DNA of 64,000 nucleotides from assembly GCA_016180135.1 (NCBI GenBank), contig JACPBV010000005.1:802-64801 (forward strand), in the 5' to 3' direction. The translations under genes were made by a program, and so were the position numbers. Shown in pieces: positions 24,539 to 39,345 of this stretch. The notes under the pieces were generated by a model. It was given only the letters and a program-made list of their open reading frames with translations, did no database searches and was not told the DNA's origin. The stretch's first letter is position 1. Every line of letters begins with the position of its first letter. Origin of the DNA: Candidatus Woesearchaeota archaeon. Its GTDB lineage: Archaea > Nanobdellota > Nanobdellia > Woesearchaeales > JACPBV01.

Positions 24539-26668
24539 ATGAACAGCCACATTTTGTTTAATGGAAAAAGGGGCCAGCTTACTTTATTCATCGTCATCGG
24601 AGCTGTTCTTCTTATTGGCGGGGCGATTTATTTTTCAGCCCGTGAGCAGGCTGCAAGGCAGGAACTGCAGCCATTTACCCAGTCGCTCATCCAGGAAGTC
24701 CCGTCAGAATTCGCCCCCGTCCAGGCTTTTGTGGACAGATGCCTCGGCCAGACTGCAAGGGAAGGCCTTCAGATCCTGGGCGAGCATGCAGGATTCATCA
24801 GCCTTTTGGAGAACAACATCAACGCACGGGATGATGCGACAAATGCAGACGCAGTCCCTCTGGCCAGAGGCTCTGAATATGCGATACCTTATTGGTGGTA
24901 TCTTAAGTCCGGCAATGGCTGCGCAGCGAATTGCGAGTTTTCTATGGTTCCGGGAAATAAGCTGTTCCTGAGGAAAACGCCGGGAAAAGCCTCTATTGAA
25001 GGCCAGCTGGAAGAATATATCAACGCAAACATCAATGACTGCCTTGCGGATTTCCGGGAGATAAAAGCCCAGGGCTTCAATGTCTCGCCAAAAAGATCAC
25101 CAAGGTCAGCTGTCACTATTTATCTTGGGCAGATGGGCATCAGGCTGGACTTCCCGCTTGAGGTAACCAAAGAGGCAGCAAGAGAGCTCTCAGATTTCTT
25201 GATATCCTTGCCTCTGGATTTCGCAAAAGTATACAACACCGCCTCAAGGCTTGCTGCGATGCAGGCAGATATGAAATTCCTCGAAAAGCACACATTGAAC
25301 CTGATCACTGCTTTTTCCGGGCTTGACAGGAACAAATTGCCGCCATTTGCTGACGTAAGGCCTTCCTTCGGGCCAAAAGTCACCTGGTCAGAATCCCAGT
25401 CCATGGAGCGCTTTAAGAATAATGTTCTTCCCCCCAACATCCAGCTGCTGAAAGTCTTTGGCGCTAAAAATTACGAGCCCTACCCTTTTTTCACAGACCC
25501 TCTGCTGGATTCGCTCTACAACCGGGGCATGCTTATCCCCGGAACAGCAAACTACAGCAGCCTTGAGATAACGTTTGAATACAACCCTTTCTGGAACATC
25601 TACTTTGATATTGACTGCAACGGAGACAGCTGCGAGCCGGAAACATTCCAGGAGAACTTCATCACAGGGATTATCCTCCAGCAGTATAACTTTGTCTATG
25701 ACATCTCTTTTCCCGTCAAGGTCACCATCAGGGATACCGAAGCATTCAACGGCGAAGGGTATCTTTTTACATTCTTCCTCGAAGCAAACATACGGCAGAA
25801 CGATCCGATGCCGTCCGCCTATTCAAGGATTGAGGCGCTGCAGCCGTCGGGAAATTCGCAGTTCTGCGATTCAGACAAAAAAACCTCAGGAGAGATAACG
25901 ATTGAAGCAAAGGATTCTGTCAGCGAACAGCCGATACCTGAAGTTCAGGTCATAATCTCAACAGGGACAGAAAACTGCCTGATAGGAACGACAGATGAAG
26001 AAGGAAAGCTTGTATCCCAATTCCCTGTCGCTTTCGGCCCCGTCGTGAGCTTCACAAAACCGGGCTTTATCGGCTACTCCCAGAGAATTGAGCCGAGAGT
26101 TGACAAAAAGCAGTTTCTCAGCATTGCGCTCAACCCCAAGGTCGCCAAAAGCTTTGAGATCCAGAAACGCCTGAGGACAAGGCAGCCCGGGCAGAAAGAC
26201 TGGGAGATCGGCAGCATCGCAAACCTGTCCAGATACGAAGAGGCAACAATCATTTTGACAAGACTAAGCGGCTTGCAGGAGCAGGATTACACAACCGGAA
26301 GCGCGTATGTTGTGAACCTGACCGAACTTCCAACGATAGATATTGCTCCCGGGAAGTATGAAGTCCGCATCATGCTCCTTGACAGCAGGAACCTCTCAAT
26401 TCCCCAGAAAAAGATCAAAGTCAAAGATGAAAGCTTCACCCTGCCGGAGATCGGCCTTGGCGAGGGCTTCAAGACAGGCGGCGCATTGTATAATTTCACC
26501 TTCACCAAATATAATCTGCAGAAGGATAAGCTTGTCTTTTACGTATTGAATCCGGACATCCTGGCTATCCCTGAGCCGCAGAGGACTTTAGATGACCTTG
26601 ATGAGCTGACAAATGTTGACCAGGCTTCAGCAAGATACTGGGAAAAGCTGACCCAGGGGATACGATGA
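24539..26668 (+). CDS. large protein with a class III (prepilin-like) signal peptide, module B
   Basis: The N-terminus contains 'GKRGQLTLFIVIGAVLLIGG'. It shares 'YWWYLKS' and 'FVYDISFPVKVTIRD' with its paralogs. An ATGA overlap links it to the next gene. Confidence 0.8.
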   Translation: MNSHILFNGKRGQLTLFIVIGAVLLIGGAIYFSAREQAARQELQPFTQSLIQEVPSEFAPVQAFVDRCLGQTAREGLQILGEHAGFISLLENNINARDDATNADAVPLARGSEYAIPYWWYLKSGNGCAANCEFSMVPGNKLFLRKTPGKASIEGQLEEYINANINDCLADFREIKAQGFNVSPKRSPRSAVTIYLGQMGIRLDFPLEVTKEAARELSDFLISLPLDFAKVYNTASRLAAMQADMKFLEKHTLNLITAFSGLDRNKLPPFADVRPSFGPKVTWSESQSMERFKNNVLPPNIQLLKVFGAKNYEPYPFFTDPLLDSLYNRGMLIPGTANYSSLEITFEYNPFWNIYFDIDCNGDSCEPETFQENFITGIILQQYNFVYDISFPVKVTIRDTEAFNGEGYLFTFFLEANIRQNDPMPSAYSRIEALQPSGNSQFCDSDKKTSGEITIEAKDSVSEQPIPEVQVIISTGTENCLIGTTDEEGKLVSQFPVAFGPVVSFTKPGFIGYSQRIEPRVDKKQFLSIALNPKVAKSFEIQKRLRTRQPGQKDWEIGSIANLSRYEEATIILTRLSGLQEQDYTTGSAYVVNLTELPTIDIAPGKYEVRIMLLDSRNLSIPQKKIKVKDESFTLPEIGLGEGFKTGGALYNFTFTKYNLQKDKLVFYVLNPDILAIPEPQRTLDDLDELTNVDQASARYWEKLTQGIR

Positions 26669-29600
26669 CAGCAAAAAACAAAACAGCACAGGCGCTCTTC
26701 CTCATCACCTTAGTATTGACCCTGCCGTTCTACTCATCCCTGGCGTATGCCTCCCTGAGCAGCCCTTCCGTCAAAGGGGCAGACGGCTTTCCCGGATTTG
26801 TCCGGGGAAATGAGCAGTTTCAGATAAATGTGACAGCCTTCATTGCGCCCAATGAGGTGATAACCCCCAACCAGCTGTCAACAGTTGACGTAAACGGCCC
26901 GCCATTTGACAGCTGCCTCGACATCGGCTCCGGGAATTTCCAGTGCATCAAAGCTTTTGATGCTTCAACCCTGTCGCAAAACCCTTTCACTTTAAACATA
27001 AAGCTCTTCAGAGACGGCGGGTCGCAGGAATCAAACTTATTGGTAAACGGCATTATTGACCAGCTTCCTCCGATAATAAATACATTTGCGATAACCCCCC
27101 AAAAAACATCGTCAGGAAATATCTCGCTGCAGTGGTCTGTCACCGACGTTTCCCACTCCCCAGCTGCCCTCACCCAATGCACCGGCATCAAGAAGGTCGA
27201 ATTTTCATCATCTGAACGGGGAGTGTTCCGCTCAATACCGCTCAACAGCTTCCCGGTCTGCGGGCGGAGCAGGACAGAGAGCATTCCTGTTAGCCTCATC
27301 ACCGGAAGTGATGGGAACATCTCAGTTACCCTGAGGGTTTTTGACGGGGTAAATCTGCAGTCAGCCCAGGAGAGCACCTTCGTGTTTGACACAACTCCCC
27401 CATCCATCGTCGTTGATTCGCTGAAGATTGTTGACAATGCAGGAAATGACCTCAGCTTCCTGACAAACATTTCAGCCCTCTCCTCGATAAAGTTCAAGAT
27501 AAACGCCAATGACCTCAATGTGAGTTCCGTCTCTGCAGACATCTCTTCCCTCAGCACCGATCCCCCTGCTGATTTCAGGAAAAAGCCGGTTGGCTGCATC
27601 AGGTCTGCCTTCGATGAATTTAACTGCTCGATTGCAGGCATACCGGTGAGCATCAGCCAGTCCCTTAATGCCCAGATAATTGTCAACGCATCTGATGCTT
27701 TAGGGAATAAGCAGACAGCGCAGTTGGCAAAGCAGCTGAATTTTGACAATCTTGGCCCGGTTGTTGCCTCCATAACGACAGATTTCCGGAATGCGGCAGA
27801 TGGAAGGAGCTTCGCAGGAAAAAAGACAAATTTCTTTGTCACCCTGGCTGAAGGGGGCGTGGGCGTTGATAAAAATGATGTCAGGCTCGATTTAAGCTCT
27901 GTCAACAGCGCGCTTGCATCTGCATCGCCCGATGAATGTGTTTCTTCCGGAAATGAGATAACCTGCGTCTTTGCAAATATCACCCCAACAGCTTCTGACG
28001 GCGTCAGGCCGATCAGGGTTCTTTCCTCTTCCCGGGACAGGCTTGGGAATCCTGTATCTGGAGCTTTGGAAGAGAATATAACCATAGACACCACCCTGCC
28101 AAAGATTGAGAAGTTTTCCGCCAAAGCGCTGGCAACAGGAACCTCAACGACCTTCCCGCCGTTCCTGAAGACAGGAGATGCGTTTGCCTTTGAGGTGAAT
28201 GTGACGGAGAAAAATGATTTTACGATAAAAGCTGATTTTTCAAACATTGTGACGACAATGCAGGAGCCCGTTGCAGGACAGTGCTCAGTGGCCGCTGTGA
28301 TTTCAGGCCTTGCAGGGCTTGGTGGAAATGTTTCCGTCTGCGCATGGAACACAAACCCTATAGATGTTCAGGGCCCGATAAATTCAAACATCCTCATCAA
28401 TGTGACTGACGCTGCCGGAAACAGCAAGATTGGCTTTGCCAACTTTACCGTCCTCCAGTTTGATGATGCCGAGGTTGTCAACCACTGGACGTCAAGAGTG
28501 GAATGCTCTCCGTCGTTGGTGGACAGGCAGATAACGCCGCTGATCAACGCCAAAGTCTACTGCCAGGTAAGGCTGCAGCCCCTAAGCAATGACCAGGAAG
28601 TGCTGGACATAAAGCTGAATCCCTCCCAGTGCGAGAGCGTTGCCAAAGATTCTTTAGATTTTGTAGATCCAGAAGGGTTTGAGCTGACGAACGGCAACAG
28701 GGGAGCGACTGAGCCTTTCGTCTCTTTCCGGCTTGCAAAAGGCGAGATGGAGATTGACCGATTGGAGTTCAGATGCCCGCTGGAGATCATAACAAGAGCA
28801 GGCCAAACAATCAACAAGAACCCCGAAGTAGAGGAAGTAACGCTGCAGGCAGGGTTCTACAACAATCCTTTAGGCCAATTTGGCGATGAAGTGAAGAAAG
28901 AGATAAAGGATGCCAAGGATATTGCGAATAATATCGGGTTTAAGATTGTGGGGTATTTGAAAGAAATCGTAAAATATGCCACGATGATTTGTAATTTGAT
29001 AGCTACAGTAGAAAAATTATGGTGGGCAATCCATAGTTTTACCAAAGGGATGACCACTGCTCACCTTGCCGCTGTTGGTCCTGCAGAAGTTGCCTTGGGC
29101 CAATATGCTTACCAAGGATGTGTTCAAGATCAATTTATTCAGAAATATAATGAAAATCTCTATACGGGATTTAGTTCATTCTGCAAATATGTAAACTGCC
29201 AATACAGCCCGGCTTCCCCTCAGGATCCTTCCAAAGGGGGCCAGATTACCAGTGAAAAGACAAAAATGGGCAAGATTCATGACTTTTTCAATTCCTGGCA
29301 GACCAAAGGAAATAACTTCTTTGGCAAAATAAGCCCTGCGACAGAAACAACGACAACCATCTCCCTTTTAGGCACTAATCTTATAGGCAGAAAAGGCACC
29401 GATAGTAAATTCCGTGACTGCAAAACAATTGAGGAATGCTCAGGTAAGCAGCCAAGCCAGTATATGAATGCGAGAGACAATCTTGGAGTTGCCCTTATGA
29501 CAGGCTGCATCCCGGGAATTATTAACGGGTTGGATAATATTCGCCAATTGTTCTGCCTCAAAGCTGACTGCCTCCAGGATAATGCAAGAAACAATGTTCC

Positions 29601-29949
29601 AATAAAGGAGTGCAATGACCAGTTCTGGTATGCAACATGCAAATATATCATTGGCGAGGTATTTTCATTTTTCCCGCCGTTCGCGTTTTTTTTCAGATAT
29701 GTAGGATACATCACAGAGGCATTGAGCGACCCCATAACGGCAGTATTCACCTTGTTAAACATCTTTTTCCAGCCATGCCAGGTTGAGTGCAAGCCAGATA
29801 AAGGTGGTTCTGTTGGATGGGTGCAATGGAGTTGGTTTTGCGGGAGCCTTCAGGTAGCAACCTACATCGGTGAGATTATCAACGACGTCCAGGGAATTAT
29901 TGATACTTTCAAAGATGAAAAGATAGATTACTGCGAGAGGATTGATTGA
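26665..29949 (+). CDS. giant secreted surface protein B (Ig-like repeats, Cys-rich C-terminal region)
   Basis: A 1094-aa ORF with signal peptide 'ALFLITLVLTLPFYSSLAYA'. It aligns with the 10288 protein. Confidence 0.8.
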   Translation: MTAKNKTAQALFLITLVLTLPFYSSLAYASLSSPSVKGADGFPGFVRGNEQFQINVTAFIAPNEVITPNQLSTVDVNGPPFDSCLDIGSGNFQCIKAFDASTLSQNPFTLNIKLFRDGGSQESNLLVNGIIDQLPPIINTFAITPQKTSSGNISLQWSVTDVSHSPAALTQCTGIKKVEFSSSERGVFRSIPLNSFPVCGRSRTESIPVSLITGSDGNISVTLRVFDGVNLQSAQESTFVFDTTPPSIVVDSLKIVDNAGNDLSFLTNISALSSIKFKINANDLNVSSVSADISSLSTDPPADFRKKPVGCIRSAFDEFNCSIAGIPVSISQSLNAQIIVNASDALGNKQTAQLAKQLNFDNLGPVVASITTDFRNAADGRSFAGKKTNFFVTLAEGGVGVDKNDVRLDLSSVNSALASASPDECVSSGNEITCVFANITPTASDGVRPIRVLSSSRDRLGNPVSGALEENITIDTTLPKIEKFSAKALATGTSTTFPPFLKTGDAFAFEVNVTEKNDFTIKADFSNIVTTMQEPVAGQCSVAAVISGLAGLGGNVSVCAWNTNPIDVQGPINSNILINVTDAAGNSKIGFANFTVLQFDDAEVVNHWTSRVECSPSLVDRQITPLINAKVYCQVRLQPLSNDQEVLDIKLNPSQCESVAKDSLDFVDPEGFELTNGNRGATEPFVSFRLAKGEMEIDRLEFRCPLEIITRAGQTINKNPEVEEVTLQAGFYNNPLGQFGDEVKKEIKDAKDIANNIGFKIVGYLKEIVKYATMICNLIATVEKLWWAIHSFTKGMTTAHLAAVGPAEVALGQYAYQGCVQDQFIQKYNENLYTGFSSFCKYVNCQYSPASPQDPSKGGQITSEKTKMGKIHDFFNSWQTKGNNFFGKISPATETTTTISLLGTNLIGRKGTDSKFRDCKTIEECSGKQPSQYMNARDNLGVALMTGCIPGIINGLDNIRQLFCLKADCLQDNARNNVPIKECNDQFWYATCKYIIGEVFSFFPPFAFFFRYVGYITEALSDPITAVFTLLNIFFQPCQVECKPDKGGSVGWVQWSWFCGSLQVATYIGEIINDVQGIIDTFKDEKIDYCERID

Positions 29950-30988
29950 AATGGTTAAATCAGCCAAATCAGTAAAGCTCCCAGGAATCGCAGCAGTGTC
30001 AGCAGGGATTCTCAACGAAATAAAAGGAATTATCTCGAATGCCCGCCATCGGGCGTTCAATGCATTGAACCGGGAAATGCTTACTGCTTATTTCGAAGTT
30101 GGCAGGAAGATATTTGAAGAAGAGCAGAAAGGGGAGAAAAGAGCAGGGTATGGTGAAAAGCTTATTGAAAACTTGTCTGTGGAATTGATTAAAGAGTTTG
30201 GAAAAGGATTTAGTATAACTGCTTTGAAGAATATGAGGATGTTCTTTACTGTTTATAAAGATAAGATTGGTCAGCCAGTGACTGACGAATTCTTCAGGCT
30301 GTCATGGACCCATTATTGTGAACTAATCAAGATTAAAGATGAGATAAAGAGGGGATATTTTGAAAAATACGCCATATCTGAAAACTTAAGCGTAAGGGCC
30401 TTAAAAAGGCAGATGTATTCTCTCCATTATGAAAGGCTGTTGATGAGTAAAGATAAAAAAGCTTTGATAAAGTATGAAAAAAGAGGGAATATCCCTGCAA
30501 CAACAGAGGAGCTTATCAAAGACCCTTATGTCCTTGAATTTCTTGATCTAGGCGAGAAAAAAGCTTATACTGAAAAAGATATTGAGGCCAGGATATTGGA
30601 TGACTTGCAAAAGTTTTTGCTGGAACTGGGGCAGGGATTCAGTTTTGTTGCGAGGCAAAAGAGGTTTACCATTGACAACGATCATTTTTACATTGATTTG
30701 CTTTTTTATAATATTTATTTAAAATGCTATGTGGTGATTGAGTTAAAAGTCGGCAAATTTAGGCATGAGGATGCAGGGCAGATGAACTTTTACCTAAATT
30801 ATGTCAAAGAAGAGTTGAATAAAGAAAAGGATAATGATCCTGTCGGCATAATACTATGCACTGAAAAAGACAAAGTGCAGGTAGAATTTGCATTATCCGG
30901 CATCTCCAATAAGCTCTACGTTTCAAAATATAAATTATACCTTCCGAGCAGGGAAGAATTAGAGAAGGAAATAAAGAGGCTGCTTTAA
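29942..30988 (+). CDS. DUF1016 / YhcG-family PDDEXK nuclease domain protein, copy 1
   Basis: Contains 'IDLLFYNIYLKCYVVIELKVGKFRHEDAGQMNFYLNYV', the typical YhcG core. It overlaps the stop of the upstream giant gene by 8 nt. Confidence 0.8.
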   Translation: MIEMVKSAKSVKLPGIAAVSAGILNEIKGIISNARHRAFNALNREMLTAYFEVGRKIFEEEQKGEKRAGYGEKLIENLSVELIKEFGKGFSITALKNMRMFFTVYKDKIGQPVTDEFFRLSWTHYCELIKIKDEIKRGYFEKYAISENLSVRALKRQMYSLHYERLLMSKDKKALIKYEKRGNIPATTEELIKDPYVLEFLDLGEKKAYTEKDIEARILDDLQKFLLELGQGFSFVARQKRFTIDNDHFYIDLLFYNIYLKCYVVIELKVGKFRHEDAGQMNFYLNYVKEELNKEKDNDPVGIILCTEKDKVQVEFALSGISNKLYVSKYKLYLPSREELEKEIKRLL

Positions 30989-31037: not shown

Positions 31038-31220
31038 ATGAAAACAAACAAATCAGCCAGGATTTCAGGAATCGTAATATTGTTTGCAGTTATAAGCCTG
31101 TTTGTGTTTGCCTTCTTCACAGCCCAGCTCCCGGAAGGCATGAAGCCGCTGGTTGAGGTCAGCATGAACGGTCCTGAGTCGGTGACGGGAGCGGCGGTTG
31201 GGGTGACGGGGATAAAATGA
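31038..31220 (+). pseudogene. 5' fragment copy of the 32536 surface gene (signal-anchor segment only), or a small expressed membrane peptide
   Basis: 'MKTNKSARISGIVILFAVISLFVFAFFTAQLPEGMKPLVEVSMNGPESVTGAAVGVTG' parallels residues 1-69 of the 32536 protein. It ends in an ATGA overlap with the next gene. Confidence 0.5.
31050..31212 (+). repeat. direct repeat copy 1 of the 5' coding segment of gene D
   Basis: Aligns with 32557-32719 without gaps, at about 88 percent identity by eye. Confidence 0.8.
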
Positions 31221-32539
31221 ATAAAAAGACATTCAAAGAAACAGAACTCCTGGAATTAAAAAAATCAACCTCTGAGTTAAAGGAAGCTATAATCTCCATG
31301 GCCTCTATCTTAAACAAGCATCAGAAAGGAGAAATCTACTTTGGCATAAAGAATAACGGCGAAATTGCAGGCCAGGATATCTCAGGAAAAACAATAAGAG
31401 AAGTGTCTAAATCTGTTTCGGATAATATTGAGCCTAAAATTTATCCTAAAATCAAAGATGTCTTAATTGATGGCAGGAAATGCGTGCATGTTGAATTTAA
31501 TGGCAATGATATCCCTTACTATGCATTCGGGAGGGCCTACATGAGAGTGGGTGATGAGGACAAGAAAGTAAGCGCCAAAGAATTGGAGAAAATGATTGTA
31601 GAAAAAAATAAAGATGAGTTAGCATGGGACAAAGCAGTATGCAAAGGCGCAAAAACAAGTGATATAAGCCTGCAAAAACTGAAAGTATTCCTCAAACAGG
31701 CAGCCTTGAAATTTGATTCCGCAGAAAATTCGCTTAAGAAGCTTAACCTGATAAAGGGCAGCAGCCTTATCAATTCGGCGCTGATACTATTCGCAAAAAA
31801 TCCTGAGAAATTTTTCCCAAATGCAAAATTGCGATGTGCCGTTTTTGGCACAGACGATGCCTCTTTTATCATTGATATGCAGGAATTTGAAGGTGATTTG
31901 TTCTATCTGATTGAAAAGGCGCAGGAGTACATACTTAAAAATATACACATAGGTATGAGGATTGATGGATTGTACAGGGTTGATGTTCCGGAGATAGACA
32001 AAGAAGCATTTAGGGAGGCAATAGTTAACGCTTTTTGCCATAGGGATTACCACAACTATGACTCCGTAAATATTGCAATATTCAGGGGCAGGATGGAGAT
32101 AAGGAGCCCGGGGTTATTGTATGGGGGGCTTACCATAGAAAAGATCATATCAGGAGCCGTTTCTGAGAGGCGGAATGAAATAATCGCAGAAATGTTTCAT
32201 AAAGTCCATTTTGTCGAAAAGTGGGGAAGGGGGATTAATTTGATTCTTTCCAAGGAGCCGGATGCTGATTTTAAGGAATCAGGCAGGCATTTCGTTGTAG
32301 TTTTCAAGAGGAAAGAAAAAAGCTACGAAGTGAAAAGTTCGGAGAAGAGTTCGGAGAAAAGTTCGGTGAAGATTTTAGAGTTGATAAGGGAAAATCAGAG
32401 TATAACCGTCCGGGAAATTGCAAAAGAATTGAACATAACTGCAAGGGCAGTGGAAAAGAGCATCTCAAAATTAAAGCTAAAAGGCTTGCTTAAAAGAATC
32501 GGCCCGGACAAAGGGGGGCGCTGGGAGATCATCAAATGA
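31217..32539 (+). CDS. COG2865-type protein (AlbA_2/Schlafen-like DNA-binding domain + HATPase_c_4-like domain + winged HTH)
   Basis: Contains 'ETELLELKKS', 'GEIYFGIKNNGEIAG', 'NAFCHRDY', 'EIRSPGLL' and 'VEKWGRGINLI'. The C-terminal HTH is 'SITVREIAKELNITARAVEKSISKLK'. Confidence 0.8.
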   Translation: MNKKTFKETELLELKKSTSELKEAIISMASILNKHQKGEIYFGIKNNGEIAGQDISGKTIREVSKSVSDNIEPKIYPKIKDVLIDGRKCVHVEFNGNDIPYYAFGRAYMRVGDEDKKVSAKELEKMIVEKNKDELAWDKAVCKGAKTSDISLQKLKVFLKQAALKFDSAENSLKKLNLIKGSSLINSALILFAKNPEKFFPNAKLRCAVFGTDDASFIIDMQEFEGDLFYLIEKAQEYILKNIHIGMRIDGLYRVDVPEIDKEAFREAIVNAFCHRDYHNYDSVNIAIFRGRMEIRSPGLLYGGLTIEKIISGAVSERRNEIIAEMFHKVHFVEKWGRGINLILSKEPDADFKESGRHFVVVFKRKEKSYEVKSSEKSSEKSSVKILELIRENQSITVREIAKELNITARAVEKSISKLKLKGLLKRIGPDKGGRWEIIK

Positions 32540-35500
32540 AAAAGCTCAACAATTTCAAATCAGCAAAGATGTCAGGAATCGCAATAGTGTTTGCAGTGAT
32601 AAGCCTGTTTGTGTTTGCCTTCTTTACCGCACAGCTCCCGGAAGGGATGAAGCCGCTGGTTAAGGTTAGCATGAACGGGCCTGAGTCAGTGACTGGGGCA
32701 GTGGTTGGAGTCACGGGGATGGCAGTAGAAACTTATACTCTTCCTACAAAAGAGGGGGTGGGTAAAAGTAAAGATATTGCACCTGGCAAGTATTACATTG
32801 AAAGCAAAGGCAGTATAGGTGAAACCAAACCTGCTCAGGTTCTCTTTGATTATACAGGCACCTTAACCCCCGGCACCTACACAGTTGTGCAGCGAAGCTC
32901 GGATGGAAGGGAATTTACAGCAAAAGATATTAAAGTTGAAGATGGAAATAAAATCACCGTTATTAGGACAGGTAGAGGAGATTGGGTAGAGGGGGGAGAT
33001 GGGTCATCAACATACAAATCGAGCACTATAATGCTCGATAAGAAGGGTAAAGTAACAACAGATCCGGTTTTAATGGTTAGCCTTCTCCAAATCCCGGAAA
33101 GTATAGGGCCAAAAACAAACAAAGAGATAACAGAAAATAATCCCCAAATATTAACCTCAAAAGAAGATTTTTCCAGCCGCAATGCGGTTTATTTTAAAGA
33201 TGATGGCAATAAAATAGATGCCCCCACTAATAGTGGGACAAGTAAGGGTACTTATTACGGAACCAGCATATTCAAGTTTGATGGGCAAGATTACTATGTG
33301 ACAACAAAATATGAGGATGGTGAGGATAACAACAAAGCAGTGAGATATATTAGCGAAAACCCCCCTTCTCCAGCAACTGGATGGGGAACAGAGATAAAAG
33401 GATATGATGCCAAGACAGGCATCGGTAGATTAGATTCCAATGTTGGCAGTTTGAAAAAAGGGAAAGTTGATGTTTCTTGGCGGGGCTTTGACAACGGTGT
33501 GCCAACTAAATTTTCAAATATAAATTCCAACACAATGCAGTCTAACAATAATGGATTATACCTTAGTAGTAAGGAAGGCAGCCTATGGAGCGCAAATCAG
33601 CCATCAAATCCAGAATCGGGGGATATTTCTTACGGAACTTCCATTTATACTAAAGATGGACAAGAGTATTATGTTACTCAGAAGTATAAGTATGTAGTTA
33701 GTGGAAAAAGTGAAAGTTGGGAAGCCGTCAAAGATGAGGTTTACCTTGCAAAAACACCTCCAAACAATAAGGATGAAATAGAAAAAGGCGCGAGAGGAAC
33801 AATCGAAGGCAACAATATCAAGATTACCGCCGCAGGTGAAGGATTAAAGGTTGGTGATGACTTTGATGTAAGGCCTCAAAATTCTAAATATGGTGCAACA
33901 GAAAAAGAGGAAGATGCTCTTAGGCGTGAGTTTAAAGGTACTAATGAGGAATTTGCAGCGATGCTATCTTCCCTCGAAAGTTCGACTGCAATAGGCGCAA
34001 CATCAACTTCTTCCGCCGCATCAAGTTCTGCAGGGACCAAAGAAGTAAGAAGACCAATCTTCTTCAGGGGAAAATGGTTTGTTTTTGACTTTTCAGGTAA
34101 AAAGCCCATAGAGTTTCCTGATGACGAGGAAGCCAAAAATTATGCCGCAAAGATTAACAAAGCTATAGAACGAGGACTTAAACCCTCAGAATTCACCTCC
34201 GATAAAGAGGGAAAAAATGATTTATTTGCAAGTTCTTCAGGAACGCTTCTTTCTTACGACGACTCGAAAAAAGATTTCTCTAATCCCCCCGCTGGTACGG
34301 AATTTTGGAAAAAGGAAACACTTGGGGCAAACCTCGAGGTAAACGTAAGGCACGCCAATGTTGGCGGCGCACCATCTGGCGAAATTTATGGCGCCATTGG
34401 TAAGTTTAATATTGATATTCCAGCGCTCCAAAGCATCAAAAAGAACGTTAAACCGGGAACTACCGTTACCTTTGATAAAAATACAAAAACTTTTTCATTC
34501 ATTAATCCAAAAGAACAATCTGTGCAGGAAATATTTTCTGCCAGTTATAATGTTGAACCTGATACTGCCCACCCCAATACGCCGCCAAAAGTTACAGGAA
34601 CTAGGACTCAAACAACCACAGTAGATTATTACTTTGACCAATATGGGAGCCAAATAACCCGTGCAGCACATATCAAATTGGCCTATGAAGGTAATCCTGG
34701 CCAGGAAATTAAAGTGCCCGAATCAAACATTTTTTCGAGGAACGAAATATTCAAGGGAATTACGGTTTTAAACAATCTAGATATTAAACAGCAACGGACT
34801 GAGTTTGTTTTTACTCCCGAAAGTGATGGAACGCAAACCATCTCTGGATTCAAAACAACGTCATTTGCGTATGACTCCAATAAGGGAACTTTAGCAGGAA
34901 TAGTGCTTTCTACAGGGGAATTAAATAATCAAGTTCAGGAAACGGTGGTTTATGATATGGAAAAAGGAACTGTTACGAAAACAAAGGAACGGGGTATTGA
35001 ATCTGTCTATCTTGTGCCTACGCCTACCGAGGATATTAATAGTCTTAATGGTCTCGAAGAAGAAGCTGCACGGGTCGGCAACCGTGAGCACAACCGTAAA
35101 GCTTTTGCAGATTGGGAACTTAAGCTCACCCAATACCGGGGCTTATCTGGGTTTTCTCAGCTTTTCTTCGATGATGAAACTCTTGCAAAATGGCGTGAAA
35201 ATGTAGATAAATACTTTGCCAAATATTTAGGCCAAGACTATTTTGAATCTTATATCTGCTCACTCGCAATAGACAAAGAATCCGGACCTGGCACACTCTC
35301 GATGGAAACCCCAAATGGATTATATGACATCATCGCCCACATCGAAGGCACAAGGTCAGAGCCAATAAATCGCCCAGACGGCACAACAGAATTCGTCTAC
35401 AAATTCACCTACAATATCAGGAATCCAGAAGGCTCGCCCCATAAGAACTTATTATTCAACATTGCGCTCTACAGCGCTCAGGGAAAGAGATACCTTTACC

Positions 35501-35799
35501 CAAGATCCCTCGCTGTAAAAGAAGGGAAGCATTTCATCAGGGGCTTAGTCCTTAATGAAGCCAATGCAGACAAAGACTTTGAAAGAGGCCCTGTCGTCAA
35601 AGTCTCCCAAAACTTATACGGAAAGCTCTGCATCGAATTCGGCCAAACAATAACCAACGCTGAAGGGGACGAAGAATCGCAGGTCTGCAACACTATTACT
35701 GCATTTACCGGAACAGGAACTGAGTTTGAGGAGCGCACATCGGAAGAAGCCAAGCAAACACCTCAGGGCCCGAAGGACTTCAGCGAGGGGGAGATATGA
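32536..35799 (+). CDS. large membrane-anchored surface protein D
   Basis: A 1087-aa ORF with an N-terminal signal anchor. It has repeated 'YGTSI(F/Y)..DGQ(D/E)YYVT' segments. Its C-terminal region, with 'YFESYICSL', is related to the other giant proteins. Confidence 0.8.
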   Translation: MKKLNNFKSAKMSGIAIVFAVISLFVFAFFTAQLPEGMKPLVKVSMNGPESVTGAVVGVTGMAVETYTLPTKEGVGKSKDIAPGKYYIESKGSIGETKPAQVLFDYTGTLTPGTYTVVQRSSDGREFTAKDIKVEDGNKITVIRTGRGDWVEGGDGSSTYKSSTIMLDKKGKVTTDPVLMVSLLQIPESIGPKTNKEITENNPQILTSKEDFSSRNAVYFKDDGNKIDAPTNSGTSKGTYYGTSIFKFDGQDYYVTTKYEDGEDNNKAVRYISENPPSPATGWGTEIKGYDAKTGIGRLDSNVGSLKKGKVDVSWRGFDNGVPTKFSNINSNTMQSNNNGLYLSSKEGSLWSANQPSNPESGDISYGTSIYTKDGQEYYVTQKYKYVVSGKSESWEAVKDEVYLAKTPPNNKDEIEKGARGTIEGNNIKITAAGEGLKVGDDFDVRPQNSKYGATEKEEDALRREFKGTNEEFAAMLSSLESSTAIGATSTSSAASSSAGTKEVRRPIFFRGKWFVFDFSGKKPIEFPDDEEAKNYAAKINKAIERGLKPSEFTSDKEGKNDLFASSSGTLLSYDDSKKDFSNPPAGTEFWKKETLGANLEVNVRHANVGGAPSGEIYGAIGKFNIDIPALQSIKKNVKPGTTVTFDKNTKTFSFINPKEQSVQEIFSASYNVEPDTAHPNTPPKVTGTRTQTTTVDYYFDQYGSQITRAAHIKLAYEGNPGQEIKVPESNIFSRNEIFKGITVLNNLDIKQQRTEFVFTPESDGTQTISGFKTTSFAYDSNKGTLAGIVLSTGELNNQVQETVVYDMEKGTVTKTKERGIESVYLVPTPTEDINSLNGLEEEAARVGNREHNRKAFADWELKLTQYRGLSGFSQLFFDDETLAKWRENVDKYFAKYLGQDYFESYICSLAIDKESGPGTLSMETPNGLYDIIAHIEGTRSEPINRPDGTTEFVYKFTYNIRNPEGSPHKNLLFNIALYSAQGKRYLYPRSLAVKEGKHFIRGLVLNEANADKDFERGPVVKVSQNLYGKLCIEFGQTITNAEGDEESQVCNTITAFTGTGTEFEERTSEEAKQTPQGPKDFSEGEI
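32557..32719 (+). repeat. direct repeat copy 2 (inside intact gene D)
   Basis: Aligns with 31050-31212. Confidence 0.8.
35329..35799 (+). repeat. direct repeat copy 1 of the 3' coding segment of gene D
   Basis: Aligns with 36906-37469, except for the 93-nt insertion in copy 2. Confidence 0.85.
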
Positions 35800-36794
35800 A
35801 AAAAGAGATTGAAAGCCAACGAAGTGAATTAATTAATAAAATCTCAGAAATTGTCAAGAGAGCCAAAGATGAATTAGCTAAAACGATAAATACAAAGATG
35901 GTCGCTGCTTATTGGGCCATCGGCAGATATATTGTTGAGCATGAGCAAACGGGCAAAGAAAGAGCTGAATATGGCTCTGAACTTATGAGTGCCTTATCGA
36001 AAGAGCTTTCCTTAAGGTTTGGAAGAGGATTTTCCCGTTCAAATCTTCAGAATATGCGGCTTTTGTATTTGGCATATCCAAAAAGCCAGACACTGTCTGG
36101 CAAATTGAGCTGGAGCCATTATTGCCTGTTGATTTCTCTTGAAGAAAGGGCAAAAAGAGATTTTTATGAAAAAGAAACCCTGCAAAACAATTACTCATTC
36201 AGGGAGCTCAAAAGGCAGATAAGCTCAGCATTATATGAGCGGCTGGCATTGAGCAGGGATAAACATGGGGTTTTGCAGCTGTCCAAAAAAGGCAATGTTA
36301 TCACGAGTGCTGAAGATATGATAAAAGATCCATACGTGCTTGAATTTCTAGGGCTGCCGGAGTCTGAGAAGCTTTCTGAAAAGGGGTTAGAGGGATCTAT
36401 AATAAAGCACTTAAGGGATTTTCTCCTTGAGCTTGGCAGAGGATTTGGCTTTTTTGGCAGGCAGTATCGGATCACCATGAACAATGAGCACCATTATGTC
36501 GACCTCGTGTTCTACCATGTTGAATTAAAGTGCTTCGTATTAATTGACTTGAAAGTGAGAGAATTCAGGCATGAAGACGCCGGGCAGATGAATTTCTACC
36601 TCAATTATTTTAGGAATGAGGTAAACAGCAGGGATGATAACCAGCCAATCGGAATCATTTTATGCCTTGAAAAGAATAAAGTTTATGTTGATTATGTATT
36701 GGGCGGATTAAGCAATAAAATATTCGCATCCAAATACCAGCTGAAGCTGCCGACACCAAAAGAGCTTGCAGAAGAGGTCAAAAAGGAAATGTAG
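35796..36794 (+). CDS. DUF1016 / YhcG-family PDDEXK nuclease domain protein, copy 2
   Basis: Contains 'VDLVFYHVELKCFVLIDLKVREFRHEDAGQMNFYLNYF'. By eye it is roughly 45 percent identical to copy 1. An ATGA overlap links it to the stop of gene D. Confidence 0.8.
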   Translation: MKKEIESQRSELINKISEIVKRAKDELAKTINTKMVAAYWAIGRYIVEHEQTGKERAEYGSELMSALSKELSLRFGRGFSRSNLQNMRLLYLAYPKSQTLSGKLSWSHYCLLISLEERAKRDFYEKETLQNNYSFRELKRQISSALYERLALSRDKHGVLQLSKKGNVITSAEDMIKDPYVLEFLGLPESEKLSEKGLEGSIIKHLRDFLLELGRGFGFFGRQYRITMNNEHHYVDLVFYHVELKCFVLIDLKVREFRHEDAGQMNFYLNYFRNEVNSRDDNQPIGIILCLEKNKVYVDYVLGGLSNKIFASKYQLKLPTPKELAEEVKKEM

Positions 36795-36905
36795 TATACC
36801 CGATAACCAAGAAAAATCAATTAATAGATTAATGGAAAAAAAATGCGCCATAAAACACTGAAGTCGGGACAAAAAACCATGGCAACCCACAACACTCCCT
36901 TCCCC

Positions 36906-37469
36906 ATCATCGCCCACATCGAAGGCACGCGCTCAGAGCCAATAAGACGCCCCGACGGAACCACCGAATTCGTTTACAAATTCACCTACAATATCAGGAA
37001 TCCGGAAGGCTCGCCTCATAAGGACTTATTATTCAACATTGCGCTCTACAGCGCTCAGGGAAAGAGATATAGCAAAAGACGCAAATATTCAGATAATAAT
37101 GCCCGTCTTTTGCTTATTAATAACGGACAACTATGGTTAAATAATTATTGTCCGTTATTATACCTCTACCCAAGATCCCTCGGTGTAAAAGAAGGGAAGC
37201 ATTTCATCAGGGGATTAGTCCTTAATGAAGCCAATGCAGACAAAGACTTTGAAAGAGGCCCTGTCGTCAAAGTTTCCCAAAACTTATACAGCAAGCTCTG
37301 CATCGAATTCGGCCAAACAATAACCAACGCTGAGGGAGACGAAGAATCGCAGGTCTGCAACACTATTACTGCATTTACCGGAACAGGAACCGAGTTTGAA
37401 GAGCGCACATCGGAAGAAGCCAAGCAAACACCCCAGGGCCCGAAGGACTTAAACGAGGGGGAGATTTAG
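36906..37469 (+). repeat. direct repeat copy 2 (orphan)
   Basis: Aligns with 35329-35799. Confidence 0.85.
37070..37162 (+). other. 93-nt in-frame insertion made of two hairpins
   Basis: Absent from copy 1. It contains 'gcaaaagacg...cgtcttttgc' and 'taataacggacaa...ttgtccgttatta', and 'ata' occurs at both junctions. Confidence 0.55.
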
Positions 37470-37470
37470 G

Positions 37471-37959
37471 ATGGAAGTCAAAAAGGCCGGAGAGAAATCC
37501 AAGAGAAAAATCCTTATTGACTTGGACGTGATAACCGTCGCCTTGTGGAACAAGAAAAAAGAGATTGTTTCATTTATTGAAAGGGTAAAAGAAGGTGAAT
37601 TTGAGGTTTACACCCCCTATAGCCTCATGGATTTGGTTGAGCAATGGAGAGATGCAAGATTAAGAAACAATATCAAAGAGTTCTATGCCCTTTACTCAAC
37701 GGAGATTGTTTCGCTCCAGCGCTTGAAGAATCTCATTGAAGAGAGAGCTATCAATGAAACCGCTTTAATTGAGGTTTTAAAAACAAAGGAGATTAAGGAA
37801 GAAGATATTCTTTTGGTTGTCGTTACCGCCCTGATGAATCTCGATTTCTTAGTAACCCTTAACAGGAAGCACTTAAAAAACAAGGAGGAGGTCATAAATG
37901 CCATACTATCCAATCATGGGCTTAAAAAAGTTAAGATTATCTCGCCAGAAGAGGTTTAG
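37471..37959 (+). CDS. PIN-like domain protein (weak)
   Basis: 'ILIDLDVITVAL' near the N-terminus and 'LDFLVTLNRKHL' near the C-terminus resemble PIN acidic blocks. The start lies 1 nt after the upstream stop. Confidence 0.45.
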   Translation: MEVKKAGEKSKRKILIDLDVITVALWNKKKEIVSFIERVKEGEFEVYTPYSLMDLVEQWRDARLRNNIKEFYALYSTEIVSLQRLKNLIEERAINETALIEVLKTKEIKEEDILLVVVTALMNLDFLVTLNRKHLKNKEEVINAILSNHGLKKVKIISPEEV

Positions 37960-38393
37960 TTTTCCTCAGTTTAGCGAGGTCGGAAAGGAACTTATCAGTA
38001 AGCCCTTTTTTTATTTCATCAGCCAGAGCAATAGGGTCAACATCCGCAGGAATAATGGGTTTCAGCTTCATAAAAAGAAAGGAGAGAAGGGATTATTTAA
38101 ATCTTCCGCTAAAACAATGCGCCTTAGTAATGACGCCAGCTCAGAGCCCATCCAAAGGCCGGACGGAATGGACACGCTCAAAAGAGATCATGCCGCATCA
38201 TGGCAAAAGCAGGGCAGGATGACCGCATGCAAAAGCACCCCCACTGCCTCCAAAGAGCAGGATGGGATGGCCGCATACAAAAGTATCACCGGCAGCCGTC
38301 AAAGGCCGGACAGAATGGATGCATCCAATTTCCACCCCGCCGCCAGTCAGGATGAGGAGAAAATGTTTGCATTGAATGGGGCTATAGCATAGC

Positions 38394-39212
38394 ATGAAAC
38401 CGATCAAAACAATAAAAAGAAAAAGCTCCTGGGGTGAAGCTCTCGGAGAATATTTCCGGGATCACGGAAAAGCCGCTTTCAAAGCAGCAAAAGCCTCGAT
38501 GAACACCCGCACCCTGATGGCGGCAGGATACGCCGCAATATTATTCTCAGCCACGCTCCTTGCATTCTTTTTTGCGAAGCTTGCCCTGGTTCCAAAACTG
38601 GAAGCGCTTGACTCGATCAGCCTTGACCGCATCCAGGAAAAGGCAGAGGGTGAATTGGCGGAGATTGCCGGAATAGCGAAAGGATTCATCGCAGCCCTTA
38701 TAGCAGTCGTTATAGCAGCATCAGCGCTCTGGGCTCTGCTCTTTGGCCTAATCGAGGGAAGCCTCATCAGAGGATTTACCGGCTCGGATGTTCCCCTGAA
38801 AAGATATGCCCTCCTTGGGCTTGTTTGGGCCCCCGCCTGGCTGGCCATATTCTTCCTCCTCATTTTTGGGGGCAGGTCGGAAACACTCCTCACAGGATTG
38901 ATCATGCTGGCGCTGGCCTTCATCCACTTCAGCACGACAGTCTTTTGCCGCTTTTCGGCAACGAACAGGTTAAGGGCAATAAGGGAAGGCCTTGCCGAAG
39001 GAATAAGGCTTCACCATTATCTCCTGCCCTACATTTCCCTATACTTTATATACCGCCTCGGCAAATATCTCTTTGATTGGGCATTAATCCTGAGCAAAGC
39101 TCAGCCAGGGATTGTCCTGCTTGGGACCGGAATGGTTTTGATGCTGCTGTTCATCGGATTTGCGCAGGCATTCCAGATCAACACTCTCCTGCAGGCCAAA
39201 CAAGCCAGATAG
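38394..39212 (+). CDS. polytopic membrane protein, paralog of 16646 and 58865
   Basis: It has five or more hydrophobic helices and the shared 'LRAIREGLAEGIRLHHYL' block. It lies directly upstream of the prepilin-like gene of module C. Confidence 0.6.
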   Translation: MKPIKTIKRKSSWGEALGEYFRDHGKAAFKAAKASMNTRTLMAAGYAAILFSATLLAFFFAKLALVPKLEALDSISLDRIQEKAEGELAEIAGIAKGFIAALIAVVIAASALWALLFGLIEGSLIRGFTGSDVPLKRYALLGLVWAPAWLAIFFLLIFGGRSETLLTGLIMLALAFIHFSTTVFCRFSATNRLRAIREGLAEGIRLHHYLLPYISLYFIYRLGKYLFDWALILSKAQPGIVLLGTGMVLMLLFIGFAQAFQINTLLQAKQAR

Positions 39213-39345
39213 TCAGGCAAAGAAGCAGAATAGGGAAAGTTGGGACCAATCAAGCCCCTCAGGCCAAACAAGGTTGGCAAACAGGCAAACAAGCGGAATA
39301 GGGAAAGTTGGGACCAATCAAGCCCCTCAGGCCAAACAAGCCTGA
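39192..39345 (+). repeat. tandem repeat with a 68-nt period (about 2.3 units), including two perfect 45-nt copies
   Basis: 'gaatagggaaagttgggaccaatcaagcccctcaggccaaacaag' occurs at 39228-39272 and 39296-39340. 'caggccaaacaag' also occurs at 39192, inside the end of the upstream gene. Confidence 0.8.

Follow-up and report, generated by a model that had tools for sequence, protein, structure and literature searches.

Stranded 3' end of a surface-protein gene beside a DUF1016 nuclease gene in a Woesearchaeota operon: probable displacement of an earlier allele

We analysed a 64,000-nt stretch of Candidatus Woesearchaeota DNA (the window) and found that the 3' end of the gene for a surface protein, gene D, is present twice, once within the intact gene and once as an orphan fragment beyond a DUF1016 gene that begins at the D stop codon. 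We consider it probable, with odds of roughly two in three, that the orphan was once the 3' end of an earlier D allele and became stranded when this defence-type nuclease gene was inserted at the D stop codon. The segments lie in layers, in the order p1094, n'' with DUF1016-1, n', the AlbA_2 gene, D, DUF1016-2, c', the 162-aa gene, the c'' trace and mem272. Their window positions are as follows, with all features on the (+) strand.

26665..29949 (+): p1094, the operon gene directly 5' of D in uninvaded relatives
29951..30010 (+): n'', the oldest D-start remnant, fused in frame with the N-terminus of DUF1016-1
29942..30988 (+): DUF1016-1, a YhcG PD-(D/E)XK nuclease gene; PADLOC candidate defence gene PDC-S02
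31038..31220 (+): n', an orphan 5' fragment of D with start codon and signal anchor, ~60 codons
31217..32539 (+): AlbA_2 / HATPase_c_4 / wHTH gene, COG2865-like, inserted
32536..35799 (+): gene D, intact, encoding a 1087-aa surface protein
35328..35799 (+): c, the duplicated 3' segment within intact D, codons 932-1087
35796..36794 (+): DUF1016-2, inserted at the D stop codon with an ATGA overlap
36795..36904 (+): spacer of 110 nt, AT-rich (GC 0.38), without homology to D
36905..37469 (+): c', the orphan 3' fragment of D, inside ORF 36843-37469
37070..37162 (+): MITE-like insert of 93 nt with two hairpins, in frame and stop-free
37471..37959 (+): 162-aa gene, an older inserted cassette of a family without assignment by Pfam or PADLOC
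38136..38168 (+): c'', trace of a still older 3' remnant of D (SEPIQRPDG)
38394..39212 (+): mem272, the operon gene directly 3' of D in uninvaded relatives

Segments c and c' repeat each other in direct orientation and differ at 29 of 471 aligned nucleotides (93.8% identity with the MITE-like insert removed), which bears out the proposal of the initial annotation that a ~470-nt repeat of the D C-terminal domain flanks DUF1016-2. Both copies are open, as also proposed, since each reaches its stop codon and neither a stop nor a frameshift occurs inside the orphan. A repeat search and MAFFT alignment resolved two collinear blocks (35328-35492 with 36905-37069, 92%; 35490-35789 with 37160-37459, 96%). 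Thus, the copies match in two homologous blocks but are not collinear throughout, and c' spans 564 nt compared with 471 nt for c because the in-frame insert splits it. Third codon positions account for 21 of the 29 mismatches, and the encoded proteins differ at 6/156 residues (96% identical up to the stop). Identity is unevenly distributed, rising from 87% over the initial 78 nt to 96% beyond them. The homology begins at D codon 931/932 (IIAHIEG...) and ends exactly at the stop codon, where D reads ...QGPKDFSEGEI and the orphan ...QGPKDLNEGEI. The annotated ATG of the orphan ORF (208 aa) at 36843 was recovered; the spacer supplies this codon and 21 unrelated ones. A single nucleotide separates the orphan stop codon (37467-37469) from the start of the next gene (ATG at 37471), in agreement with the annotation. 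For that 162-aa gene, previously described as PIN-like, no Pfam or PADLOC match was obtained.

The D protein comprises an N-terminal signal anchor, a variable middle and a conserved C-terminal domain, and neither D nor the orphan had a Pfam or PADLOC match. The domain family has 342 representatives with a conservation of 30-47%, and the domain is C-terminal in nearly all long members. Its AF2 model (pLDDT 80) consists of helices and an Ig-like sandwich, for which a fold search returned no PDB match at E <= 0.001 and generic Ig-like matches only at E > 0.004. The orphan lacks 931 residues (85% of the D protein), including the signal anchor, and its own domain is missing roughly a third, namely the first ~75-90 conserved residues. 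The missing parts of the domain are the helical portion and the first strand, with the invariant residues W60, R61, D65 and C82 (alignment A4). Truncated relative to all full-length family members, the orphan is probably a gene remnant. No second copy of the domain was found in 34 other Woesearchaeota loci.

The 93-nt insert in c' belongs to a family with the properties of a MITE, being short, non-coding, multi-copy, dispersed and folded into two hairpins (DNA fold –22.1 kcal/mol, z = –8.2). The family has 38 nhmmer matches in the genome, 14 of them full length and each of these bordered by TA/ATA on both sides, and it is also present in three related genomes (G001, G004 and G006). Only 2/14 full-length copies lie deep inside long ORFs. 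The insert is stop-free in one of six frames, the one used in the orphan. A D homologue at locus L055, in which 38 aa are naturally inserted at this same loop, was considered as a second domain copy or MITE carrier and rejected, because the locus holds only one gene and its loop insertion is not a MITE.

We further estimated the selective constraint on the two copies. The dN/dS ratio between c and c' was 0.09–0.12 (dS 0.21), a pairwise value that is not assignable to either branch, and it is far below 1 rather than near-neutral (binomial test, P = 1e-7 against omega = 1). The initial annotation had read the open frame as a sign of selection, recent duplication or gene conversion rather than decay. 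The copy is indeed young and without visible decay, but the low omega is no proof of selection on the orphan, because the 5' orphan n' gives an equal value against D (dN/dS 0.11, dS 0.45). The sole outgroup, a Hainich groundwater contig (L033, 80% nucleotide identity), polarises 2/4 changes, one per branch. Divergence dominated by synonymous changes is expected from two functional alleles before truncation, or from later allelic exchange in the intact copy. A ratio of ~0.1 would therefore be explained without selection on the orphan if the orphan and the intact gene represent two alleles that diverged under purifying selection. By contrast, a pure in-place duplication with a neutral orphan, for which omega ~0.55 is expected, is ruled out by the binomial test (P = 1e-4). 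Because the layering of gene ends around inserted genes recurs in related tiny archaea, the open frame does not argue for a new functional protein, and we take the orphan product to be probably without a function of its own.

The duplication of c is not isolated, as the window contains three 5' copies and three 3' copies of D ends, each bracketing an inserted gene. The core of n' (31049-31213) matches 32556-32720 at 88%, and its stop codon overlaps the ATG of the next gene. Segment n'' matches the D start region (32555-32600) at 35/45 nt, a score reached by 0/2000 shuffles. The c'' trace, weak within the window alone (23/30 nt match to c'), is credible only because of synteny with a genome of the same genus (G001), in which a collinear 89-codon c'' remnant follows the homologue of the 162-aa gene. 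Between these ends lie genes of lower GC content (0.37–0.40) than the core genes and D ends (0.48–0.51). DUF1016-1 and DUF1016-2 both belong to the DUF1016/YhcG family, with PF17761 and PF06250 above the gathering score (DUF1016-1: PF06250 1.5e-60, PF17761 1.4e-39, PADLOC PDC-S02 5e-132; DUF1016-2: PF06250 8e-59, PF17761 7e-44, PDC-S02 8e-138), and share 47% amino acid identity. The best relatives of DUF1016-2 (72–75%) come from other Woesearchaeota and from a Patescibacteria bacterium (72%), whereas D has no close relative. The AlbA_2 gene (PF04326, PF13749, PF13412) is 61% identical at the amino acid level to the gene at the equivalent position in another genome, G009. The similar sizes of p1094 and D, each followed by a DUF1016 gene, had suggested paralogy, which was rejected as the two have no similarity. 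No Rfam match was found in 29-40 kb and no inverted repeats in 30-42 kb (repeat search); no integrase domain occurred among the scanned ORFs, and none was identified beside the inserts.

The ancestral arrangement is preserved in two related Woesearchaeota (G010 and G012), in which p709-p1094-D-mem272-p700-p2185 are contiguous; the gene before D is there 36% identical to p1094 over its full length, and its stop overlaps the D start. Layered ends recur in other genomes and independent assemblies, with different breakpoints. In G001, an ATPase gene and a D tail (DFTEGEI followed by two stop codons) precede MNT-HEPN, a 162-aa pseudogene, c'' and mem272. The pseudogene is broken by the same MITE family, and c'' (43% to D 940-1028) contains one internal stop and lies 370 nt from mem272. 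L033 carries an orphan of 115 aa whose homology to D starts near residue 982; its ATG is overlapped by the stop of an MNT-like gene. In L071/L072 (ENA/JGI), a D homologue is followed by a DUF5678 and Asp-protease-like pair, an orphan, DUF433 and VapB-PIN, the 164-nt orphan of L071 being 99% identical to its parent (162/164). The duplicated segments of both the window and L071 always end 0–3 nt from the D stop. At the 5' end, G009 has five N-end copies in the order p1094, n1, DUF1016, n2, DUF1016, n3, AlbA_2, n4, 164-aa gene and n5, of which at least three end at one nucleotide position after a GTNACNGGGATGG motif. All four N-orphans of this genome are open up to the cassette ATG with in-frame indels (omega 0.4–0.9), and G013 and G002 retain 7- and 3-codon D-start remnants before MNT-HEPN cassettes. 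Nearly all junctions in the window, G009 and L033 have stop-to-start distances of 0–4 nt or ATGA overlaps.

These observations suggest a displacement process. Since the ancestral operon has essentially no intergenic DNA, a new gene can be accommodated beside D only if neither D nor its neighbours are damaged. Every such event would involve incoming DNA with a defence-type gene adjoining a D end; one side would join by homology inside D and the other illegitimately inside the resident D, by homology-facilitated illegitimate recombination or an equivalent circle integration. The outcome would be an intact D, whose end would be the donor-derived copy, then the new gene from the D stop, and then the last codons of the resident D as an orphan. 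Repeated events would push older orphans outward and produce the nested n''/n' and c'/c'' pairs. We favour displacement because of the contiguous ancestral operon, the nested end copies, the equal omega of ~0.11 at both ends, the recurrences with different breakpoints, the incomplete orphan domain, the MITE that it carries, the lower GC content of the inserted genes and the contrast between DUF1016-2, with its relatives in other organisms, and D, and also because older orphans decay (a stop interrupts the G001 c'', little remains of the window c'', and omega is 0.4–0.9 for the G009 N-copies). A full-length search for close D alleles returned D alone, a search with the isolated C-terminal domain returned the orphan and one 633-nt contig only, and a JGI metagenome scan returned none. 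Because these searches yielded no intact allele that corresponds to n' and c', we infer displacement rather than observe it.

Copying of the last 472 nt of D in place when DUF1016-2 was inserted, with the 6% difference arising later and mainly by homologous exchange between the intact D end and alleles of other strains, appears quite improbable. It would account for the near-identity of the L071 orphan (a near-identical donor would do so equally well), for segments that end so close to the D stop and for the uneven identity along c and c'. However, no mechanism is known for target duplications of 160–470 nt at gene ends, the expected omega is rejected unless allelic exchange is invoked, and replacement better explains why young (n', c') and old (n'', c'') ends are nested in pairs. 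An assembly duplicate is also unlikely judging from the sequences, given that the copies differ by 6%, their flanks are unique and the architecture recurs in independent assemblies. We give very little weight to an assembly chimera that fused the D loci of two strain haplotypes. The MAG comprises 44 contigs and the 94%-identical segments are only 1.6 kb apart, but no shared sequence exists at the junctions to mislead an assembler, and equivalent architectures come from other samples.

The orphan might instead be kept open as a translated relay ORF rather than as a protein domain, allowing re-initiation at the 162-aa gene 1 nt further on, with selection on frame and stop position but not on amino acids; re-initiation would have occurred likewise when the 162-aa gene lay directly behind D. 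The ATG of the orphan, its frame kept through the MITE and its end at the next gene fit such a retained translated-leader role, as do the tight junctions, the open N-orphans of G009 despite their omega and the L033 overlap. We nevertheless regard this explanation as unlikely, as the G001 c'' has its internal stop and long distance to mem272, the window c'' has nearly vanished, a one-in-six chance of a stop-free frame is not significant, and allelic divergence of the fast-evolving signal-anchor region could equally explain the G009 pattern. A point against displacement is that the shared N-copy ends in G009, with the window n' ending <=6 nt from the same position, are not predicted by random illegitimate joins. 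A speculative proposal, to which we attach a low probability, is that D ends are dedicated landing pads for cassette capture in Woesearchaeota lacking an integrase. Defence and toxin-antitoxin genes may then insert at two fixed points, one immediately behind the GTNACNGGGATGG motif where the signal anchor ends and the other at the stop codon; the recurrent DUF1016 PD-(D/E)XK nucleases might make the break, and the open orphaned ends may pass ribosomes along a promoter-poor operon.

If displacement is correct, very small and promoter-poor archaeal genomes would acquire defence genes within a surface operon that looks essential while leaving it unbroken, and the stacked leftovers of gene ends would form a readable record of the order of acquisition. 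When a partial gene copy has a low dN/dS and an uninterrupted frame, both can date from the time when it belonged to a working allele, and they need not imply a present function. Should the fixed 5' junction reflect a targeting mechanism, it would represent cassette capture without a recognised recombinase.

Several features resemble known systems. Rickettsia palindromic elements are in-frame palindromic repeats in coding genes, and the MITE-like insert is likewise a ~90-nt hairpin-forming dispersed repeat, in frame and stop-free, although here few full-length copies lie deep in long ORFs and the host ORF is probably already a remnant. Genomic islands integrate into the 3' end of tRNA or protein genes and carry a replacement copy of that end. 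As in such islands, the target gene remains whole, with part of its 3' end directly repeated on the far side of the insert; the inserts here, however, are single genes of ~1 kb, and the repeats (164–472 nt) are diverged and have variable breakpoints.

The layout resembles that of the C-terminal displacement arrays known from orphan modules of the cdiA-CT/cdiI and rhs-CT/rhsI types (Poole et al. 2011, PMC3150448, citing Jackson et al. 2009), in which a large surface or secreted protein gene and a small gene are followed by 3' fragments each with a small gene. Those fragments have upstream homology of varying length and mostly no initiation signals of their own, and mobile elements interrupt some of them (PMC3150448). 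Similarly, a 3' fragment homologous to the D 3' region lies downstream of D. In contrast to those arrays, the C-terminal tip of D shows no polymorphism (96% protein identity between c and c' up to the stop), no VENN or PxxxxDPxGL demarcation is present, and no toxin, immunity or delivery domains were recognised in D or the orphan by Pfam or PADLOC. Moreover, the genes in between encode nucleases, DNA-binding proteins and toxin-antitoxin components, the layering also affects the D 5' end, and the host is a DPANN archaeon. The proposed route is shared with the T6SS effector-immunity modules of Vibrio cholerae, which undergo sequential displacement by homology-facilitated illegitimate recombination (Kirchberger et al. 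2017, PMC5361080), with a one-sided homology anchor, older genes pushed outward and ordered arrays formed without an integrase. What those arrays retain are immunity genes of plausible benefit. At the D locus, by contrast, it is the target gene itself that survives as truncated ends, and the cargo has no relation to the function of D.

The 3′ end of the surface-protein gene D was found to be repeated beyond an inserted nuclease gene. The initial annotation had described a direct repeat of about 93% identity with roughly 30 mismatches, and an orphan with its own ATG at 36843 and the next gene 1 nt after its stop codon; the ORF map, a repeat search and pairwise alignment bore out both descriptions. 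Positions 36905–37069 repeat 35328–35492 (92%) and 37160–37459 repeat 35490–35789 (96%), and the start-to-start spacing shifts from 1577 to 1670 nt because a 93-nt insert (37070–37162) sits in the second copy. With this insert removed, the D end (c) and its orphan copy (c′) differ at 29 of 471 nt (93.8% identity), and 21 of the 29 mismatches fall at third codon positions. The homology begins at D codon 931/932 and ends exactly at the stop codon of either copy; the ATG and first 21 codons of the orphan ORF come from a 110-nt AT-rich spacer 3′ of DUF1016-2 that is unrelated to D.

Features of the D region
29951–30010, N-terminal extension of DUF1016-1, apparently the original D start codon plus about 20 D-derived codons (MVKSAKSVKLPGIAAVSAGI...)
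31049–31213, n′, duplicate of the first ~60 D codons (88% identity), ahead of the inserted AlbA_2/HATPase_c_4/HTH gene
32536–35799 (+), gene D, intact, 1087 aa
35796–36794, DUF1016-2, YhcG-type nuclease gene
36843–37469, orphan ORF, 208 aa (ORF map), which includes c′
38136–38168, c″, trace SEPIQRPDG, downstream of the 162-aa gene and upstream of mem272

The window is contig C10 within a 1.51-Mb, 44-contig MAG. In two relatives (G010 and G012), the uninvaded operon genes p709, p1094, D, mem272, p700 and p2185 are contiguous and overlapping, and the same genes flank the invaded, lower-GC D region of the window (GC 0.37–0.40 for inserted genes versus 0.48–0.51 for core genes and D ends). The order here is p1094, DUF1016-1, n′, AlbA_2 gene, D, DUF1016-2, c′, 162-aa gene and mem272. 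The DUF1016-1 ORF opens with ~20 codons that are themselves a third and older D-start copy (n″; 35/45 nt; 0/2000 shuffles), and the c″ trace lines up with a D 3′ remnant of 89 codons that G001, a genome of the same genus, carries at the equivalent position. Given n″, c″ and this gene order, D is enclosed by two nested layers: the older comprises n″ with DUF1016-1 and the 162-aa gene with c″, and the younger comprises n′ with AlbA_2 and DUF1016-2 with c′. We also observed that p709 (24539–26668) and p700 (39398–41500) are paralogues (23–25% identity across relatives), that two related modules are present in the operon, and that a 68-nt unit occurs twice in tandem (87% identical) at 39192–39327, between mem272 and the 700-aa gene. 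The DUF1016-2 protein is 72% identical to a Patescibacteria (CPR) protein and 55–58% to Bacteroidota proteins, unlike D, which has no relative above 47%; these similarities point to a nuclease gene that may be mobile across domains.

Similar arrangements recur at the 5′ end of D in other genomes. At G009:C47 (974–6207), five D N-terminal copies are interleaved with inserted genes, in the order p1094, n1, DUF1016, n2, DUF1016, n3, AlbA_2, n4, a 164-aa gene and n5; the AlbA_2 protein is 61% identical to that of the window. Every N-copy ORF ends at, or runs into, the ATG of the gene that follows, and the copies share sequence in a mosaic fashion (n1/n3, 94% over 96 nt; n2/n4, 84–88%). At least three share an end position ~8 nt past GTNACNGGGATGG, and n′ ends at most 6 nt from that point with the same AlbA_2-type gene next. 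Random joins do not predict this shared end point. D-start remnants also follow p1094 ahead of MNT-HEPN cassettes (seven codons in G013, three in G002). In G013, a DUF1016 gene (G013:C88, 11988–12959) sits at the p700–p2185 junction and overlaps its neighbours at start and stop codons; therefore, DUF1016 genes enter several junctions of the D operon. The G013 insertion block also carries three near-identical 59-nt direct repeats (4995–5161) between a 200-aa gene and an MNT gene.

At the 3′ end, G001:C58 has the order AAA_14/DUF4143 ATPase, a 19-codon D tail ending in DFTEGEI and two stops, MNT, HEPN, a homologue of the 162-aa gene broken by the MITE family described below, c″ (43% to D 940–1028, one stop) and mem272. 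On a 633-nt Hainich groundwater contig, the stop of an MNT-like gene overlaps the ATG of a 115-aa orphan that matches the D DNA at 80% identity, from roughly residue 982 through the stop. At a more distant locus (L071/L072), whose D homologue is 37% identical in the C-domain, D is followed by a DUF5678 and Asp-protease-like pair, a 164-nt orphan, DUF433 and VapB-PIN. The 3′ breakpoints vary, at ~19, 54, 106, 148 and 156 codons from the stop.

The C-terminal domain family comprises 342 representatives, and the domain is C-terminal in nearly all long members (up to 3010 aa) and single-copy in 34/34 other Woesearchaeota loci examined. The AlphaFold model of D 827–1087 (pLDDT 80) predicts a helical part and, after it, a beta sandwich of Ig-like type, with no PDB fold match at E ≤ 0.001. 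The orphan begins in the second strand of the modelled domain, so the signal anchor, the helical part and several invariant residues, including one Cys, are missing from it.

The insert in c′, which interrupts Tyr986 at a strand end, is a MITE-like element; nhmmer matches it 38 times in this genome, and G001, G004 and G006 carry it too. It folds into two hairpins (z = –8.2), with TA/ATA at either border, and is stop-free in one of six frames, the one used in c′. Because a homologue (L055) naturally carries 38 additional residues in this loop region, the fold may survive the insert. Full-length copies mostly lie outside long ORFs (12/14); one short copy (C22:70590–70677) is in frame deep within a 328-aa ORF. 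On contigs C22, C30, C9, C13, C19, C3 and C4, the family occurs in a short version of ~88–91 nt, which has two hairpins, and in a longer one of ~128 nt, where a further hairpin lies in the centre (…CCCAGAGGGATACAAAAAACG…CGTTTTTTCGTAT…). In G001:C58 (3248–3625), a copy of the same family, here with stops, interrupts the homologue of the 162-aa gene, which is a pseudogene.

The initial annotation took the open frame to point away from decay and towards selection, recent duplication or gene conversion. The dN/dS between c and c′ is indeed far below 1 (0.09–0.12 by NG86, YN00 and ML; dS ~0.2), and the counts (Nd 8.5, Sd 18.5) exclude omega = 1 (P = 1e-7); a newly selected protein does not follow, since n′ gives a similar value against D (omega 0.11, dS 0.45). 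In-place duplication with one copy drifting neutrally would give omega = 0.55, which is incompatible with the c/c′ counts (P = 1e-4). Because two truncated pieces share one purifying-selection signature, n′ and c′ are most simply explained as leftovers of an allele that separated from today's D at a time when both still functioned. Decay is seen in older orphans: omega is 0.4–0.9 in the G009 N-copies, which also have indels, c″ of G001 carries its stop, and c″ of the window is nearly erased. The L071 orphan, identical to its own D 3′ end at 162 of 164 nt (99%), is as compatible with duplication in place as with a donor of nearly the same sequence. The orphans may serve translational coupling as relay ORFs, because every orphan ORF next to a cassette stays open as far as the start codon of that cassette.

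We interpret c′ most readily as a young leftover from the displacement of the D end by an inserted cassette, rather than as a small protein newly under selection. No spare DNA flanks D, so that only insertions sparing p1094, D and mem272 can survive. A fragment from a related strain, bearing a cassette next to an end of D, may undergo homologous recombination in D on one side, with an illegitimate join inside the resident D on the other; D would stay intact, the stop (or start) codon would receive the cassette, and the resident gene end would be orphaned, an outcome that matches the window exactly. The same route has been proposed for effector-immunity arrays in Vibrio (PMC5361080), and Rhs/CdiA orphan arrays show a parallel architecture (PMC3150448). 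However, the D locus belongs to neither the Rhs/CdiA nor the effector-immunity families: its tip lacks polymorphism, and Pfam and PADLOC searches identified no domains for toxin, immunity or delivery functions. The nesting of orphaned gene ends around defence and toxin-antitoxin genes, here in a surface operon of DPANN archaea, represents a new form of a known array type.
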